Part shown: in pieces, positions 1 through 7,479 of the stretch | Position numbering within the stretch: the first letter of the stretch is position 1 | Layout: every line of letters starts with the position of its first letter | Source: a virus | Taxonomy: Duplodnaviria > Heunggongvirae > Uroviricota > Caudoviricetes | Virus record (IMG/VR): IMGVR_UViG_2534681697_000028 | Location: 1 to 10,392 of that record | Direction: 5' to 3' (one strand) | DNA length: 10,392 nt | Translations under genes and position numbers: made by a program | The notes under the pieces: model-generated | The model's input: only the letters and a program-made list of their open reading frames with translations | The model's database searches: none | Told to the model about the DNA's origin: nothing

Positions 1-300
1 TTACCGCCGTAAGTGCTCCGGCTTCCTCCACTGGTAAGTATTTTTCGCGCTCTCCCTCCGTTGTTGAGAACGGCGACGATATGCCAGCAACTCAAGGACT
101 CTTGTTCGTATGTTGCGCATATCCACGCCGTTAAGCTCAATACCGTCACGGCGCATCACCTCAGCCACCACACGCGCGTAATTTTCAGCGGTGACGCTGT
201 CCGGCTGCGTGGCCACCTGTTTGCCTGTTGCCTGACAGATTCCGGTAATACGGCGGATTACTTTCAGTAGTTCGGCGTCGGTCATGGTTATGGTTTCCAT
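1..300 (-). CDS. hypothetical protein (99-aa ORF); probably the C-terminal part of a ~125-aa HTH protein that starts at GTG 385 in another frame
   Basis: Complete ORF with stop at 1-3. Its own ATG at 300 has no Shine-Dalgarno, whereas GTG 385 (track ORF 185..385) has GAGGTG 4 nt upstream and encodes an HTH-like N-terminus (MATQTEVARHLSLTDRQLRRLQKLFP). The two frames meet at a G5 run (307-311); removing one G fuses them in frame. Confidence 0.5.
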   Translation of the reverse strand: METITMTDAELLKVIRRITGICQATGKQVATQPDSVTAENYARVVAEVMRRDGIELNGVDMRNIRTRVLELLAYRRRSQQRRESAKNTYQWRKPEHLRR

Positions 301-463
301 AGTGATGGGGGAACAATTTCTGTAATCTGCGAAGCTGGCGATCGGTCAGACTCAAATGCCTGGCAACTTCAGTCTGAGTAGCCACTGTTCACCTCGCCCA
401 AAAATCTCCCCTCATGCGTTTTAAACATGCATCTTGCGAACAACTTTATGAAACGCGGCATAT

Positions 464-560
464 ATGTCCGGTTTGAGTGTTCAATTTTTGCGCATGTCCG
501 GTTCGCAGAAAGCGCATTTCTATATTTTTCAAATGGTTAACCTTCAGAGAAACCGGACAT
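464..560 (-). promoter_or_regulatory. three copies of a 10-bp motif ATGTCCGGTT (464-473, 494-503 direct; 551-560 inverted) upstream of the gene starting at 385; candidate operator array
   Basis: Exact 10-mer repeated three times in about 100 bp between the capsid-operon terminator and the next gene start. The third copy sits inside the hairpin gaaacc-ggacat-ggtttc (548-565). An 8-bp palindrome ggttaacc lies at 535-542. Confidence 0.45.
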
Positions 561-641
561 GGTTTCCGAAAAATTTTCATAAATAGTGAAATTCTGCGCC
601 GCTCCCGCCCCGTGGCAGGCCACCCCACCGGAAGGACCCGC

Positions 642-665
642 AAAAAAAGCCGGATTTCTCCGGCC
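642..665 (-). terminator. rho-independent terminator of the capsid operon
   Basis: Stem gccgga/tccggc (649-654 / 659-664) with loop tttc, preceded on the plus strand by A7 (642-648), which is a U-run on the minus transcript. It lies directly after the stop of the 137-aa gene at 671. Confidence 0.7.
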
Positions 666-670
666 TTTTC

Positions 671-1084
671 TCAGATGGTTTTCAGTATGCGATCGATTTC
701 GCCGTCATCACCCTGATATCTGCCATCGTATGCCATGCCAGGGCTTACGGCCTGCGGGCTGTGCATGTCCATAAAGTTTTCAAAGGCTGCGGTAAGCTCC
801 GGCGCAACCTTCGGGCGTTCCTGCTCTATGGTCATGTTCAGGATTTCCCGGGCATTATCGACGCTAATACATGGCACGTTTGCCATTGCACGTAACAGCG
901 GCTGATAGTCGTCAGATTCATGAAGCGCCATAATCGCATCAGTGCGCGGCTTGTCCTGCTCTTCCAGTTTGTTAAGTTGATATATAGCCTCGTAGGTTGA
1001 TAAACCTCTGTCCGCCATTGCCCGCGCTTCGGCTTTAAATTTACTCGCTAGCGGTAGCGCCATGATAGCTTCATTGATTGCCAT
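671..1084 (-). CDS. hypothetical protein, 137 aa, last gene of capsid operon
   Basis: ORF with SD AGGGGG 4 nt upstream of ATG 1084; starts 10 nt after the stop of the upstream gene; followed by the terminator. No family recognised by eye. Confidence 0.6.
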   Translation of the reverse strand: MAINEAIMALPLASKFKAEARAMADRGLSTYEAIYQLNKLEEQDKPRTDAIMALHESDDYQPLLRAMANVPCISVDNAREILNMTIEQERPKVAPELTAAFENFMDMHSPQAVSPGMAYDGRYQGDDGEIDRILKTI

Positions 1085-1096
1085 CGTTCCCCCTGC

Positions 1097-1387
1097 TTAT
1101 CGCACCAGTGGCTGAACGGATACGCCAGAACCCGCAAAAGCGGCGCATTTTTTCGCGTCGGTGTCGACGCTCTCGGGCCAGTTAACGGCGGCGATATTAA
1201 ATATCCCCGTCTTGTAACACTGTGCTGATTTCTGCTTTGACGTGTCCACGGGGTACGCCGTCAGATAAACAGCCTTGCCAGATTCCTGACCATCCCACGC
1301 CTTAAACTCGCCATTGTCCGCCAGCATCAGCGGAAAAATGTACCAGCGTCGTGGCAACCTGCTGTGTGCCTGCATATAACTCAACAT
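1097..1387 (-). CDS. hypothetical protein (96-aa ORF); likely true start at ATG 1400 in another frame (apparent frameshift at the A5 run 1334-1338)
   Basis: ATG 1387 has no SD. ATG 1400 lies 11 nt after the capsid gene stop, has a strong SD GGGAGA, and encodes MGTPYVELYAGTQQVATTLVHF before stopping after 32 aa. Removing one base of the A5 run joins it in frame to the 96-aa ORF. Confidence 0.5.
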   Translation of the reverse strand: MLSYMQAHSRLPRRWYIFPLMLADNGEFKAWDGQESGKAVYLTAYPVDTSKQKSAQCYKTGIFNIAAVNWPESVDTDAKKCAAFAGSGVSVQPLVR

Positions 1388-1411
1388 ATGGAGTGCCCAT
1401 AGAATCTCCCG

Positions 1412-2467
1412 TTAACCAATTTTCACAGTAACAAATTTGCGGATATCTGCCGGAACCGGCTGTGGTGCGCTGTGCGTCTGCACGTACTCAATCGCCGGAT
1501 CGCCGCTCTCAATCCAGTTTTTCGGGTAGTACATGTTTTGCGTTGCGCCCGTTCTTACCGCTTCCGGATCCATAATCGCGCCATAGGCCACCAGACCTTT
1601 ATTGCTGGTGTTGCCTAGGACAAGCAAATCAGGCTCAAGGAAATATTTTTCGGTGCCGTCGCTGTCGGTGTATTTGCCGGAATAGACGATAAGGGCCAGA
1701 TCACCCAGATAGCCTTTAAAGCTCACCACTTCGCCCAGGTTTTTACACGCCAGCTCTGCGGCGGATTCTGAACCACGGGAAAGATCGTACAGCTCGCGGA
1801 ATTTTTTAAAGCTACGTAAGGTGCGCCATACGTCAGCGCCCATAATCATGACGTTGGCGGGGCAGCTGGCCTGTTCGGCGTATAGCTCGATGTCATCTGT
1901 CGGATCATGCGTCTCTTTATTCTGCTCAGACCATTTTTTTCCTGGCCCCTGATGGACAATGCAGTTTGCCGGCATATTCCAGTCGATTTCATAGCGTTCT
2001 ATGCCTTCGCCTTCAATGATGTTTTTTCCGGTCGTGACCGCATTCACTGCCAGCCATTCCACACGCGCTTTAATGGCGTTTATCTGGCGGCGCATGTTGC
2101 CAGTAATGAGGCGCATACGTCGCCAGGTGGGGTCGTTAAGCAGTGCCGGATCTTCTCCAGCCATGCGCATGATGGTTTTTGATGGATCGATTTCGTGTTT
2201 GGGTTTCATGTAGCCAGGGCGGATAGTGCTTGTTTCGTACCCTTTATCACGCTGAACCTGGCTACCCACCACAGGCGAACAAAACGCCGACATGGTGACT
2301 TCTTCAATGTCCAGGGTATCCAGCATGACATCTTGTGTGTTGAAGGTTGCTACTTTCGGGAAAAACAGCGTGGTAAACAGCGGACTGAATTTAAATTCCG
2401 GGATATCCCCGCGATTCAGGTACGCGAAAAGCTGGTTAGTGTTAAGTGCCGTTGCTTTGTCTGCCAT
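1412..2467 (-). CDS. phage major capsid protein, lambda gpE family
   Basis: 351 aa, close to lambda gpE length (~341 aa as recalled), with recognisable gpE-like blocks: KFSPLF..FF, PGYMKPKHE, DPTDDIE, FRSFKKF, RGSESAAE, YKGYLGD..IVYSGKY, VLGNTS..GL.AYG, YPKNW..GDPA.EY. Start overlaps the upstream ORF stop (TAATG). Confidence 0.9.
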   Translation of the reverse strand: MADKATALNTNQLFAYLNRGDIPEFKFSPLFTTLFFPKVATFNTQDVMLDTLDIEEVTMSAFCSPVVGSQVQRDKGYETSTIRPGYMKPKHEIDPSKTIMRMAGEDPALLNDPTWRRMRLITGNMRRQINAIKARVEWLAVNAVTTGKNIIEGEGIERYEIDWNMPANCIVHQGPGKKWSEQNKETHDPTDDIELYAEQASCPANVMIMGADVWRTLRSFKKFRELYDLSRGSESAAELACKNLGEVVSFKGYLGDLALIVYSGKYTDSDGTEKYFLEPDLLVLGNTSNKGLVAYGAIMDPEAVRTGATQNMYYPKNWIESGDPAIEYVQTHSAPQPVPADIRKFVTVKIG

Positions 2468-2673
2468 TATTCACCCCCATGAGTCTGATTCATGCCAAGC
2501 GCCGCACGTAAATAGGCGCGTACCTGCCAGCCTGTTGACGGCTCAACCATCGCCAGCGGATCAAGTCCTGCCGCAATGCCCGCTTTTACGTTCTGCTGGT
2601 GGCGTTCCTTGAGCGCCTCCACGATATCGGGGCTTATGTAAACTGTCACCCCGCCTTTTTTCTCTTCTGTCAT
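2467..2673 (-). CDS. hypothetical small protein, 68 aa, first gene of capsid operon
   Basis: ATG 2673 with SD GAGGAA upstream; stop overlaps the capsid gene start (translational coupling). N-terminus GVTVYISPDIVEALKER has a strand-helix pattern; no firm family. Confidence 0.6.
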   Translation of the reverse strand: MTEEKKGGVTVYISPDIVEALKERHQQNVKAGIAAGLDPLAMVEPSTGWQVRAYLRAALGMNQTHGGE

Positions 2674-2700
2674 AGTCAGAAATTCCTCTTCGACTTAAAA

Positions 2701-2732
2701 AATTATAACTGGATGTACATCCAGTTATAATT
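2701..2732. promoter_or_regulatory. 32-bp perfect palindrome aattataactggatgtacatccagttataatt overlapping divergent -10-like hexamers; candidate operator of the capsid operon promoter
   Basis: Verified base by base as a perfect inverted repeat. TATAAT on the plus strand at 2732-2737 and on the minus strand at 2735..2730. Centre lies ~44 nt upstream of the start at 2673. Confidence 0.6.
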
Positions 2733-2835
2733 ATAATCATAGTTGCATTTTGCGCAATAGAATTGAGTTGCGTTGCAAATTATGAAATGATTTACGGCAA
2801 CAGTAGTCACCATGCTGTTAACCTCGTAAGCAAAA

Positions 2836-2874
2836 GCCCGATAAGCTTCCTCCTGTACTTATCGGGCTTTTTTT
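2836..2874 (+). terminator. rho-independent terminator (plus-strand T7 tail; may also act on minus strand)
   Basis: Stem gcccgataag / cttatcgggc (2836-2845 / 2858-2867) followed by T7 (2868-2874); on the minus strand it is followed by TTTTG. Confidence 0.6.
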
Positions 2875-2880
2875 GGGTAC

Positions 2881-2902
2881 AAAAAGCCGGATTTTCTCCG
2901 GC
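2881..2902 (-). terminator. rho-independent terminator after the SSB-tail gene
   Basis: Stem gccgga/tccggc (2886-2891 / 2897-2902) with A5 (2881-2885) on the plus strand, a U-run on the minus transcript. Near-identical in sequence to the hairpin at 649-664. Confidence 0.6.
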
Positions 2903-2910
2903 CTGTGCGT

Positions 2911-3280
2911 TCAGAACGGAATATCATCACCGTAGGGGTCATCGTCTCCCGCTGGTGGCTGATTACCCTGTGTGCCTGTGGTTTTGCGTCTGTTCCCGCT
3001 AGGGCGTGCCGCTCGGGCACTGATTACGCTGTCGGCAATAACCTGATAACCCTGCCGCGTTTCCCCGTTCTGTCAGCGTGGCAAAGTTTGCCGCTGCTGT
3101 GGTCATGAATGCGCTTATCAGGTCGGGATGTTCCTTCGCGTATCCTTCCCCCGCGTGGCGGTCTATCGTTCTGATTGCCACCTTTAAAGCGTGCTCTGTC
3201 ATGTCTAACGCGCGATATTTCGGTTCTGTTCTGTCTCTGCGTTTTTTGAGTGATTTATTAAATTTTCCTGAAGTGTGCAT
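2911..3280 (-). pseudogene. small protein with SSB-like C-terminal tail (Gly/Gln/Pro-rich linker ending DDDPYGDDIPF), apparently frameshifted near the C4 run 3063-3066
   Basis: 93-aa ORF (3280..2999) in one frame. A second frame with no start codon is open 3072..2914 and encodes ...RPSGNRRKTTGTQGNQPPAGDDDPYGDDIPF-stop, resembling the E. coli SSB tail (...DFDDDIPF). Removing one base of the run fuses the two. The N-terminal part does not look like an OB fold. Confidence 0.55.
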
Positions 3281-3327
3281 GTTTATTTTTACCCCCTCGT
3301 TTAAAAAGTTTTGAGTTGTGCCTCCCC

Positions 3328-3555
3328 TTGTCTACCTTATCTACCTTGCTGGCCCTCATGCCAGTAATGGCGCGGCTTTCAGCGGGGTAGAGTGCTTTTA
3401 TCCACTATCTACCCCGTGTCTACCTCCCTGTCTGATTCAGGTAAAATCAGGTAGAGAGGGTAGATAGTGGGTAGACAGTAAAAAAAAGCTGTCTACCTAA
3501 CTTAATGTACTGAATTAAATGTATTTTCCTTTACTCAGGTAGACAGGGTAGACAG
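3328..3555. repeat. iteron array, putative origin of replication (consensus GGTAGACAG / CTGTCTACC)
   Basis: At least 11 copies of the core TCTACC/GGTAGA in both orientations (e.g. 3331-3336, 3340-3345, 3408-3413, 3419-3424, 3492-3497; 3386-3391, 3450-3455, 3459-3464, 3470-3475, tandem 3538-3546 and 3547-3555) plus an AT-rich stretch at 3478-3530, immediately 3' of the primase gene. Confidence 0.75.
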
Positions 3556-3568
3556 CAATTACAAAAAA

Positions 3569-5323
3569 TTATAAAAACGCGTCGCACTCGTCTGTTGTTA
3601 TTGCGTTAGTCTGCGTTACCCCCTTAACTTTCCGCGTAATATATTCATGTCCGTAAACTTTTGCGGCAGGCTTCATAGCCTTGCCAAAGTCATTTACGTT
3701 TAGCGGTTTGCTCCTGCCTGCGTATGCCATAAACGCCAGATAGACGCGGTAAAGGCTGTTCCTGGTCGTGTACTTCACTGAATCACCACCGCCACCCATC
3801 ATCAGGCCGCGCGCTTCCTCCAGAAAATTCAGGAACTGGCAAAACTCAATAACCGGATCCGTCTGTTGCTTTATTGCCAGTGCTTCATCACCGTCATGCT
3901 GTTCCAGTAGTAAAGCCCGTGCCTTCTCAGGGTCGGTAAAGTTCGCCAGCAATCGGCGGATAATAACGGGGATTTCAGCCGCAATCTTTTCCGGTAGCTC
4001 CCTGTCTTTTTCGGCCTCACTGACGATATTGTCGAAACGGAAAATCACGCGACGACGTGCCACACCTCCGGCCCGTTCGGTGAATATCATCGGGTTGTTG
4101 TCGGTCGCCAGCACCACCGCCCTGATTACCGCCGTGAAACGCTTTTCATATTTCGGGTTAATTTCCACGGGGTCGCCGCCCGTGATTTTCTTGATGCCCG
4201 TTCCTTCGCCTGTATATTTCGGCTGGTCAGCCAGGACGATAAGACGACTCCCGACAACCTGCGCACGTCCACCAGCATCATCAAGCGATGTCATTTCAGC
4301 GCTTACCGTGTTCTGTTTCCCTGCCAGAAGGCTGGCTATGTGTGTGAATGTACTTTTACCGCTCCCGCCGTCTCCGGTGGCCTCAATAAACATCTGCCAG
4401 TCGTACCGGTTCGCCATAATCATGTAAAGCGCGGCACATATGCGCATCATCTTGCGCGGGTCTTTTCCGGCTGCGTGATCAAGCCATTTATGAAAGTTTG
4501 GCGCGTTGTCGCGGATATTCTCCCCTGGTGCTGGTGGCGTGTACTCAATGCCGTTGTGCGTGGTGATCCAGTTCTCCGGCGTGTGCGGGGAAAATTCCCC
4601 CGTTTTCAGGTTAAGCACACCATTAGTGAACGGTAGCAAATCACTGGACGGCTCGCCCATCGGGTCAGCAATAACTTTTAACGCTTCAACGGCGTTATTA
4701 ATTGCCCGCTTGCTGAATGTGGCCCCGTGTTCTGAATAAACCGCCACCATTTCGCGGCTCAGTTCCATTGTGCTGACCGGACACCATATCCCGCCGCGCC
4801 ATACGTGAACGATTTCACTTTCCGGATGCACACAAACGCCATCAAATCGACCAGCAAGCATCTGTGCGCGCTCACTGTCTGCCATCTGCGAAAGTTGCGC
4901 CTTTTGCTTTACCGGAAGCTCAATGACCAGACCATCAGAAAGATTCTGGCGTTCACGGGCCAGATATTCGCGCCAGTTCTGCACCTCCTGGCCGTGCATA
5001 CCCTCAAGATAAAAATTTGCATCCTGTACACCTGCCGCCGCCAGCTTCTGACCAATCGCCTTGATCATTACAGGCTCAAGATGTCCGGCTCTGTATATGC
5101 GTGCTGATTTTCTGCCATCCGGCACAATTTGCAGATTATCCAGTTCGGATAGCTGCTGCTCTCCAAGCCACACAGGAGGCTCATTATCTCCGGCTGTACG
5201 CGCGTCATGTTCCTGCCACTGTTTCGCGTGTGCCCAGGCATCACTACCCGCAAAGATAATTACCTCTGTGTCTTTGTGTTTTATTCCGCGTGGCTGTTTT
5301 TTTACGTTCGGTGCCAGTTTCAT
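3569..5323 (-). CDS. P4-family primase/helicase (D5-like SF3 NTPase) replication protein
   Basis: 584-aa ORF with Walker A GDGGSGKST and downstream VLADQP / VLATDNNP motifs typical of phage/plasmid primase-helicases. SD AGGGG; start overlaps the upstream ORF stop (ATGA). Sits beside the iteron origin. Confidence 0.88.
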   Translation of the reverse strand: MKLAPNVKKQPRGIKHKDTEVIIFAGSDAWAHAKQWQEHDARTAGDNEPPVWLGEQQLSELDNLQIVPDGRKSARIYRAGHLEPVMIKAIGQKLAAAGVQDANFYLEGMHGQEVQNWREYLARERQNLSDGLVIELPVKQKAQLSQMADSERAQMLAGRFDGVCVHPESEIVHVWRGGIWCPVSTMELSREMVAVYSEHGATFSKRAINNAVEALKVIADPMGEPSSDLLPFTNGVLNLKTGEFSPHTPENWITTHNGIEYTPPAPGENIRDNAPNFHKWLDHAAGKDPRKMMRICAALYMIMANRYDWQMFIEATGDGGSGKSTFTHIASLLAGKQNTVSAEMTSLDDAGGRAQVVGSRLIVLADQPKYTGEGTGIKKITGGDPVEINPKYEKRFTAVIRAVVLATDNNPMIFTERAGGVARRRVIFRFDNIVSEAEKDRELPEKIAAEIPVIIRRLLANFTDPEKARALLLEQHDGDEALAIKQQTDPVIEFCQFLNFLEEARGLMMGGGGDSVKYTTRNSLYRVYLAFMAYAGRSKPLNVNDFGKAMKPAAKVYGHEYITRKVKGVTQTNAITTDECDAFL

Positions 5324-5619
5324 TTTTTACCCCTGAATACGTTAAGCATCTTTTTTATTTCCTGAATATTGGCGCGTGCTTTCTCCCTGCTGGTGGGCAC
5401 GTTACGCGGTACGGCCTGCACAAGAGAAAAATCACGGTCGAACTGATAAACAGGCATCACGCAATCATATTCGTAGCCTTCACGACGGTAGGTTACGCGC
5501 CGTTCCTCCACGCCCTTAATTATTACCGTGCCGCCGTACTTATCGCGGTAAATATCCCCGCGCATGAATTTAGTGCGAGTTTTGCCGCTGGCAGTTAAGC
5601 CAGGATATTTAAGTTTCAT
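5320..5619 (-). CDS. hypothetical protein, 99 aa, translationally coupled to the primase
   Basis: ORF with SD GGAGAA 9 nt upstream of ATG 5619; stop overlaps the primase start. Positionally analogous to small accessory genes upstream of the P4 alpha gene, but no sequence identification. Confidence 0.6.
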   Translation of the reverse strand: MKLKYPGLTASGKTRTKFMRGDIYRDKYGGTVIIKGVEERRVTYRREGYEYDCVMPVYQFDRDFSLVQAVPRNVPTSREKARANIQEIKKMLNVFRGKK

Positions 5620-5624
5620 TATTT

Positions 5625-5858
5625 TTATTCTCCGGTGTGGGGCGCTTTATACTGGTCGTGTAATGTCTCTATTTCCTGCAACTCATTTATTACAGACTCA
5701 AGAAGCGTTATTAATGCCGTGACAATCCTTGATTTCTGTTTATCACGCTCATTATCGCCAAATGTTTCCAGACACATTTGCAATATTTCCAACATATTTT
5801 CACTGTGAGAAAGTGCAAGAAATGCGCGGTCTGTTATTTCAATGTAAATATCACGCAT
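5625..5858 (-). CDS. hypothetical protein, 77 aa, first gene of the replication operon
   Basis: ORF ending 6 nt before the next gene's start; weak SD (GGGG). Function unknown. Confidence 0.5.
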   Translation of the reverse strand: MRDIYIEITDRAFLALSHSENMLEILQMCLETFGDNERDKQKSRIVTALITLLESVINELQEIETLHDQYKAPHTGE

Positions 5859-5894
5859 AACCCCGTTACTTTATTCGTACCCCTTATAATGGGG

Positions 5895-7440
5895 TGTTAG
5901 CCAGCCAGACCCGGCATGATTACTGCCCCCAGTCGTCCATGATCCGGGGGGTGATGTCACCGGGTCTGGTGGGGCGCTGGTAACCGCTAATAGGGGTCAG
6001 GTCAGGCACTTTTGCCGGGACCGTCTGTAACGTGGATGCCGGTACCTGCTCCCCGTGGTTATCTGGTTAACCCATATACAAGGGAGACAGAATGACCGAA
6101 TCCAGCGATTACGAATCCGTCCAGGTCTTTATCGGCGTTGATGTCGGTAAAGATACGCATCACGCTGTTGCCATTAATCGTTCAGGTAAACGCCTGTTCG
6201 ATAAAGCATTACCCAACGACGAAAACAAACTCAGGTCGCTAATATCTGACCTGAAACAACATGGTCAGATACTGCTGGTTGTTGATCAGCCAGCTACCAT
6301 CGGTGCGTTACCTGTCGCCGTTGCCCGCTCAGAAGGAGTCCTTGTCGGATACCTCCCTGGACTGGCCATGCGCCGCATAGCCGACTTACACGCCGGTGAA
6401 GCTAAAACTGATGCTCGTGACGCTGCCATCATTGCCGAAGCTGCCCGTACCCTGCCTCACGCGCTACGCACGCTGAAACTGGCTGACGAGCAAATCGCCG
6501 AACTCTCCATGCTCTGCGGCTTCGATGATGATCTTGCCGCACAGAAACGCAGGCCAGCAACCGTATCCGCGGCCTTCTGACCCAGATACATCCGGCACTG
6601 GAGCGCGTTCTCGGTCCGAGACTTGAGCACCCGGCGGTACTCGATCTTCTCCAGCGATATCCCTCACCAGAAAAACTCGCTTCGCTGGGTGAGAAGAAGC
6701 TGGCAGCCCAGCTCTGCAAACTTGCGCCTCGTCTGGGTAAACGCCTTGCAGCAGACATAGCTCAGGCACTGGCCGAACAAACCGTCGTCGTTCCCGGCAC
6801 GAATGCCGCTGCCGTAGTACTGCCACGTCTGGCACTCCAGCTCATCACGCTGCGTAAGCAAAGAGACGAGGTGGCGCTTGAGGTAGAACAGCGAGTTCTT
6901 GCTCACCCTCTTTACCCGGTCCTGACCAGTATGCCCGGAGTCGGTGTCAGGAGCGCAGCCAGACTCCTCACCGAGGTCGCCTGCCGCGCCTTCGCCTCTG
7001 CCGTACATCTCGCTGCTTATGCTGGCCTTGCGCCGGTAACTCGGCGATCCGGCTCGTCAATACGCGGTGAGCATCCCCCGCGACGGGGTAATAAAGCTCT
7101 CAAACGGGCGTTGTTCCTGTCGGCCTTCGCCGCGCTCAGGGATCCGCTCTCCAGGGCTTACTACACCCGCAAAATGAGTCAGGGAAAACGACACAATCAG
7201 GCGCTTATCGCCCTGGCGAGACGACGCTGCGACGTTCTGTTCGCCATGATGCGCGACGGGACTTTTTATACCCCGCAGGGGTCATAACATGCTTGACAAC
7301 TTAATAGGGGCACGTTACGCCCCGCCATAATGCGGGTATGGGTAGGTTTACGGACACAAAAAAACCGCATATCGGAATGTAAGCGGCTGTCCGCTTTGCT
7401 ATTCAGGCTGTCAAACCCGGTCGCCATGTGGGCGACGGGG
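5895..7440 (+). mobile_element. IS110-family insertion sequence (boundaries approximate)
   Basis: Contains the IS110-type transposase reading frame 6092..7287 with non-coding flanks. The family lacks terminal inverted repeats, so the ends cannot be fixed by eye. Confidence 0.7.
6092..7287 (+). pseudogene. IS110-family transposase (DEDD-type recombinase), split by an apparent 1-nt deletion in the A-run 6545-6547
   Basis: N-terminal ORF 6092..6580 carries the DEDD/RuvC-like start FIGVDVGKDTHHAVAI. The conserved continuation ...TQASNRIRGLLTQIHPALERVLGP... and the C-terminal MPGVGVRSAARLL...AAYAGLAPVTRRSGSS block are in a frame open from 6532 to 7287. SD AGGGAG precedes ATG 6092. Confidence 0.85.
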
Positions 7441-7479
7441 GAAGAATACAGCCCCACGGTAATTTTTTGCAAGTTGTTT

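Follow-up and report, generated by a model that had tools for sequence, protein, structure and literature searches.

An SSB-type acidic tail beside the presumed origin of a phage satellite is very probably the stump of an ordinary ssb gene

The window, that is, the whole 10,392-nt stretch of DNA analysed here (IMG/VR record IMGVR_UViG_2534681697_000028, positions 1 to 10,392), carries on its minus strand an open frame ending in an acidic tail of the type found in single-stranded DNA-binding proteins (SSB). This region is very probably a pseudogene scar, in which the untranslatable 3′ stump of an ordinary ssb gene was joined to a neighboring small gene by an out-of-frame deletion. The original prediction had read the same letters as a single small protein ending in an SSB tail; in related islands they belong to two separate genes, and the tail frame of the window has no start codon. 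The features on which the argument rests are the following:

2832..2904, minus strand: two tandem terminator-like structures (hairpin plus U run), directly after the ssb stop codon (RNA fold)
2911..3072, minus strand: ssb remnant, codons 84-136 plus TGA stop (translation and homology)
2999..3280, minus strand: truncated, chimeric small gene (phrog_1231), a 93-aa ORF starting with ATG in a different frame from the tail
3064..3074, minus strand: deletion junction with the single surviving 11-bp repeat GACAGAACGGG (blastn offsets and nucleotide-level comparison to the relatives L001 and L002)
3324..3558, no strand assigned: iteron array of about 12 motifs (GGTAGACA / TGTCTACC) spread over both orientations (repeat search)

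The SSB-like tail and the deletion junction

Translation of the minus strand yields a tail reading ...AGDDDPYGDDIPF up to the stop codon at 2911-2913. The open stretch in front of this TGA comprises 53 codons (2914-3072) and encodes QNGETRQGYQVIADSVISARAARPSGNRRKTTGTQGNQPPAGDDDPYGDDIPF, including the peptide segment ...GNQPPAGDDDPYGDDIPF. It consists of the end of an OB domain, a Gly/Gln/Pro-rich linker and the acidic tip DDDPYGDDIPF, and both the linker and the (D)IPF-type tip that characterize an SSB can be read directly from ...TTGTQGNQPPAGDDDPYGDDIPF before the stop. These three parts, with a tip that ends in DDIPF, are homologous to their counterparts in bacterial and mobile-element SSBs, for example Escherichia coli SSB (PDB 1eqq), whose C-terminal tip (...DDDIPF) binds partner proteins. 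In an alignment, the tail shares 98% identity with residues 84-136 of P0053, an SSB of 136 aa, and it matches the profiles phrog_28350 (E=1e-29) and phrog_44 (SSB; E=3e-6), a similarity which, judged by these comparisons, is far beyond chance. The SSB character of the tail, its motif and coordinates, and the need for a change of frame to reach it had thus been recognized correctly in the original prediction.

The profile phrog_28350, listed as “unknown function” with 71 positions, corresponds to exactly the C-terminal 66 residues of the island SSB, which suggests that truncated ssb fragments have repeatedly been called as separate genes in phage records. Directly downstream of the stop codon, the terminator-like region folds with -37.3 kcal/mol (z=-5.1) into two hairpins, 2904-2884 and 2871-2832, with a run of U after each.

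In the tail frame, neither ATG, GTG nor TTG opens an ORF of 20 aa or longer, and a TGA lies immediately upstream of Q84. The remnant lacks the start codon and uninterrupted frame of a translatable gene; the ancestral start was removed by a deletion of 316 bp, and the tail is not expected to be translated. The 53-aa remnant alone has no Pfam match, aligns only to residues 84-136 and does not represent the OB-fold domain of about 100 residues described by PF00436 and TIGR00621. As it stands, the ssb remnant of the window is presumably unable to bind single-stranded DNA or to be translated as such.

The deletion was located by comparison with two annotated relatives, L001 (NZ_AP043606) and L002 (NZ_CP027310). 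The repeat GACAGAACGGG is present in two copies in the relatives, 316 bp apart (L001 6257-6267 and 6573-6583), and in one copy in the window. One alignment pairs the window down to position 3064 with L001 up to 6267, the other pairs the window from 3074 onward with L001 from 6573, and the two share these 11 bases. One copy lies in the small gene (codons 69-72) and the other in ssb (codons 83-86), and the window has lost codons 73-92 of the small gene (its last 20) together with codons 1-83 of ssb. Compared with a bacterial SSB, both the start codon and the OB-fold core are therefore missing. Since 316 is 3 × 105 + 1 and no multiple of three, the joined frames do not match. The C4 run at 3063-3066, at which the original prediction had placed a frameshift, overlaps the edge of the surviving repeat; the frame break at this site is real, whereas the supposed slip of a single nucleotide is replaced by the junction of a 316-bp deletion between 11-bp repeats.

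The consequences for the upstream gene are visible in the 93-aa ORF, of which residues 1-72 are native while residues 73-93 (GNAAGLSGYCRQRNQCPSGTP) result from out-of-frame read-through into the ssb remnant, ending at a stop codon at 2999-3001 after 21 junk codons. The ORF matches phrog_1231 with E=9e-38, and only positions 3-65 of the 83 profile positions are covered. In an alignment with 23 relatives the C-terminus of the small protein (...EREIAEAEQVTTINVK...) is nearly invariant, and the window allele alone becomes aberrant, right after ...TLTER.

An AlphaFold model of the small protein, built on a shallow alignment, predicts a helical hairpin (H20-43, H52-80; mean pLDDT 67.5), for which a Foldseek search against the PDB returned no match (best E=7). 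The small protein belongs to no Pfam or NCBIfam family. These results confirm the earlier view that the N-terminal part is not an OB fold, since it belongs to a protein different from the SSB.

The following course of events is proposed. An ancestral island of the EcCICFT073 type would have carried, downstream of the primase and the iteron origin, the gene of a 92-aa helical protein and an ATGA-overlapping 136-aa ssb with a ...DDIPF tip. In a Shigella boydii lineage, 316 bp between the two copies of GACAGAACGGG were then lost, presumably through replication slippage or microhomology-mediated joining, as the repeat signature suggests. The small ORF has since read on in the wrong frame into what is left of ssb, with 21 junk codons before the stop at 2999-3001, and the last 53 ssb codons, tip included, are very probably still open only as recently orphaned coding sequence. 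The island appears to be left without an SSB of its own and with a partner protein deprived of its native C-terminus.

The overlap between the two frames was created by the deletion. A programmed ribosomal frameshift gene was considered and rejected, as this would call for a conserved slippery site with both frames kept as one product, and the relatives encode two separate proteins, with no fused family among 5.8 billion proteins searched. A +1 slip at the CCC-UAG ending the 93-aa ORF (window 2999-3004) would append SGNRRKTTGTQGNQPPAGDDDPYGDDIPF and give rise to a low-level tail product. If this were true, the last 29 tail residues would be added to yield a helical protein of about 122 aa that has a bona fide SSB tip but no OB fold and might recruit or titrate host proteins that interact with SSB. 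Weak translation of the tail through a slip of this kind would count against the reading as a pseudogene; nothing supports such a slip, and we consider it extremely unlikely.

The small gene and ssb in related islands

Each of the four related islands inspected has a small gene that extends 20 codons further before its end and is followed by a separate ssb with an OB fold. Downstream of the 584-aa P4-family primase, L001 encodes a 92-aa hypothetical protein (6051-6329) and then a 136-aa SSB (6326-6736), the two genes overlapping by ATGA, and L002 shows the same arrangement at 6051-6736. ATGA-overlapping pairs are also found in an island of strain Nissle 1917 and in an O157 island with a RepA-type helicase instead of the primase. 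The pair lies directly after the ori at 6051-6736 in both L001 and L002, at 2351-3048 in L006 and at 2378-3036 in L007. Across islands, the small protein measures 83-92 aa (phrog_1231) and the SSB 136-140 aa with a canonical tip, and the pair accompanies either a P4-type primase or a RepA-family helicase as initiator. Small gene and ssb look like a conserved module, and the ATGA overlap indicates that the two are probably translationally coupled.

By its sequence, the intact 136-aa relative (L001, P0053) qualifies as a true SSB. It matches PF00436 over residues 5-99 with 62.4 bits (cut-off 26), TIGR00621 with 55.2 bits (cut-off 53.95) and phrog_44 with E=7e-40, as well as SSBs in the PDB including E. 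coli 1eqq. Furthermore, its C-terminus DDPYG(D/E)(D/G)IPF (DDPYG..IPF) is invariant in 13 aligned members of the family. The satellite SSB, at 136 aa, is shorter than that of E. coli (178 aa), and its linker spans roughly 25 residues. On the basis of established SSB biology, the SSB of intact islands presumably coats single-stranded DNA during island replication, while its tip engages SSB-interacting host proteins. Neither ssb nor single-strand is mentioned in PMC6092414 or in the cf-PICI preprint and, as far as the papers searched show, the small gene–ssb pair in many E. coli PICIs has been annotated but not studied.

Distribution of the deletion allele

A megablast search of window positions 2850-3330 against 5426 complete E. 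coli genomes matched 1511 genomes, with the best matches all in two pieces, spanning about 735 bases for the 481-base query and lying over “hypothetical protein | single-stranded DNA-binding protein.” With a 121-base query spanning the junction, 1333 of the 5426 genomes matched, and none of the matches listed (best first) or sampled down the ranking crossed the junction. Among these, matches to both flanks span 437 bases (121+316) in two pieces and matches to one flank stop at the junction. The junction 32-mer CCGCGTTTCCCCGTTCTGTCAGCGTGGCAAAG was not found by exact search in a collection of one genome per species. In a collection of 15 billion proteins, the exact 93-aa product (P0001) occurs only in Shigella boydii; its cluster contains two sequences and leads to one 67-kb contig (GCA_003572355.1, QWSH01000005.1), to which window positions 1-3774 are 100% identical. 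No more than one or two assemblies, possibly of the same strain, contain the deletion allele, so that independent confirmation of its sequence is limited.

This narrow distribution in draft-level Shigella boydii data, together with the short repeats flanking the missing segment, might be taken to indicate an assembly or sequencing artefact in a strain that keeps the intact two-gene arrangement. However, assemblies do not collapse at repeats as short as 11 bp, and a separate public record, listed for two samples and 100% identical to the window over 3774 bases, has the same junction along with the same 32-bp deletion in the head-decoration gene. Moreover, deletions flanked by repeats are a common class of real mutation, and gene decay in Shigella is generally known. 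The chance that the deletion is artefactual is therefore slight.

The protein searches bear on whether a fused protein exists anywhere. A search of 5.8 billion proteins for an in-frame fusion of the small-protein N-terminus with the tail revealed no fused family. The matches correspond either to the small protein of about 83-92 aa (some in longer calls starting further upstream) or to the 136-aa SSB, and the intact version of about 120 aa anticipated by the original prediction is represented by no family. The single exception, P0005 (165 aa), fuses the N-terminus of the small protein (to ...ELISAFMAT) in frame to the SSB from about residue 29. It is a singleton encoded at L005 73-570 on one 1289-bp ENA metagenome scaffold and derives from a different deletion of about 176 bp, and all it demonstrates is that these two adjacent genes undergo such deletions repeatedly. 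On the same scaffold, P0005 is followed by a ProQ-like gene.

It could still be argued that the window encodes a real non-OB protein of about 120 aa with an SSB tail, whose frame is restored once a sequencing error in the C4 run is corrected, or by a programmed frameshift there, and which acts at the origin as a recruiter of or decoy for SSB-interacting host proteins. The two frames do overlap by about 25 codons, the tip is of perfect SSB type, and P0005 is an in-frame fusion from a metagenome. Against this, the relatives carry two genes, the C4 run marks the junction of a 316-bp deletion and not a homopolymer indel, and the junction lacks a recognized slippery motif. P0005 itself stems from the other, 176-bp deletion, retains most of the OB fold and is known from a single 1.3-kb scaffold. 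Finally, no fused family appears among the 5.8 billion sequences, and the allele occurs in just one Shigella lineage, in which further genes are broken. The comparison with relatives and the protein search largely refute such a protein, to which we assign next to no probability, and with the fused family absent the proposed role as recruiter or decoy has no support. The juxtaposition in the window is instead the product of a single deletion event that broke the frame and is seen only in Shigella boydii.

The surrounding island and its decay

The remaining features of the island in the window are:

1412-2467: homologue of the lambda-gpE-type capsid protein (PF03864)
3569..5323, minus strand: intact 584-aa P4-family primase (Pri-Rep), upstream and in the same orientation (ORF list)
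7400-7449, 7723-7810 and 7835-7911, minus strand: c4-a1b1 target, C4 antisense RNA and isrK, respectively (Rfam, gathering level)
9490-10392, minus strand: integrase
further island genes: DUF4222, a 68-aa gene and a head-decoration homologue

The iteron array at 3324-3558 lies between the stop codon of the primase and the start of the small gene and is presumed to be the replication origin, so the placement of the tail beside a satellite origin in the original prediction holds. In phage-inducible chromosomal islands (PICIs), the ori is located 3′ of the replication-initiator gene (PMC6092414). The island matches a Gram-negative PICI of the EcCICFT073 type in having int, alpA, Pri-Rep with a 3′ ori, and capsid and head-decoration homologues; this assignment refers to an island of about 10-15 kb and is based on tblastn searches with L001 and L002 proteins, the annotation of the relatives, the iterons and the features described in PMC6092414. 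The primase is 95% identical to the “DNA primase family protein” of L001, and the window shows 91% identity to a CFT073 island over 88% of positions 1-6000. The layout int - alpA - icd-like/C4 RNA region - DUF4222 - Pri-Rep is shared with EcCICFT073-type PICIs (Fillol-Salom et al., 2018; PMC6092414) and continues in the window with the iteron ori, the small gene plus ssb, and the capsid-protein and head-decoration homologues. The window differs from these PICIs in that the small gene/ssb pair is broken, the head-decoration gene is frameshifted and ISEc20 is inserted. Assignment to the cf-PICI (EcCIEDL933-type) class was rejected, as the capsid gene is of the lambda gpE type (PF03864) and accompanied by a decoration protein, as in EcCICFT073 (PMC6092414).

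In the regulatory region, the C4 and isrK RNAs adjoin the remnant of an Icd-like gene (7485-7651), forming a module resembling the C4-icd immunity of P1/P7 type, and the 437-aa ORF that overlaps these RNAs (7480-8793, minus strand) is probably spurious. The alpA homologue (8811-9014, minus strand) is 97% identical to the L001 protein and contains a stop codon where the annotated L001 CDS has Gln (KIIFR*EVKK), so that either the true start lies downstream of this stop or AlpA is truncated.

Several further lesions are present in the same island. The head-decoration gene (1097-1400, minus strand) has lost 32 bp between two copies of the 15-bp sequence CCGCTGATGCTGGCG, with the junction at about 1319-1333, resulting in a frameshift that leaves ORFs at 1302-1400 and 1097-1387 where the relatives have an intact 111-aa gene. 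ISEc20 (IS110-like) occupies about 5860-7313, between a 77-aa gene and the Icd-like/C4 region, and is 99.7% identical to other copies, while its 398-aa transposase has lost 1 bp at about 6545, a frameshift that leaves ORFs 6092-6580 and 6871-7287. Searches by tblastn with L001 and L002 proteins detected neither terS nor the PerC gene in the window. Shigella genomes are known for gene decay, IS expansion and the accumulation of pseudogenes, and the second deletion, ISEc20 and the missing terS and PerC genes fit this pattern. As in other pseudogenes formed by repeat-mediated deletion in Shigella, the lost segment is flanked by short direct repeats without mismatches, of 11 bp at the ssb scar and 15 bp in the head-decoration gene, and one copy is kept, so that nothing about the window is unusual in this respect. 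This copy of the island is decaying and, given the lesions found, its mobility is doubtful.

A real deletion might nevertheless have been selected, if losing the satellite SSB or its small partner were advantageous, for instance by avoiding toxicity or the triggering of a defence system by a foreign SSB. Nothing speaks directly for such an advantage, although the island is partly intact, with open ORFs for the primase and the major capsid protein. Selection for the loss is very unlikely, as the deletion occurred once, the pair is intact in all E. coli matches listed or sampled, and the other frame-breaking lesions and the IS in the regulatory region fit the neutral decay of an immobilized island.

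The tail is the stump of a known and annotated ssb gene and does not represent a new kind of tail-bearing protein; for the biology of SSBs, nothing new is implied. The case serves as a caution that a striking motif, if its open frame lacks a start codon, may be no more than the 3′ end of a gene that was orphaned recently by a deletion, a question which comparison with relatives settles in one step. What remains of interest is the origin-adjacent pair itself, a short SSB together with a conserved helical phrog_1231 protein, found in many E. coli PICIs.
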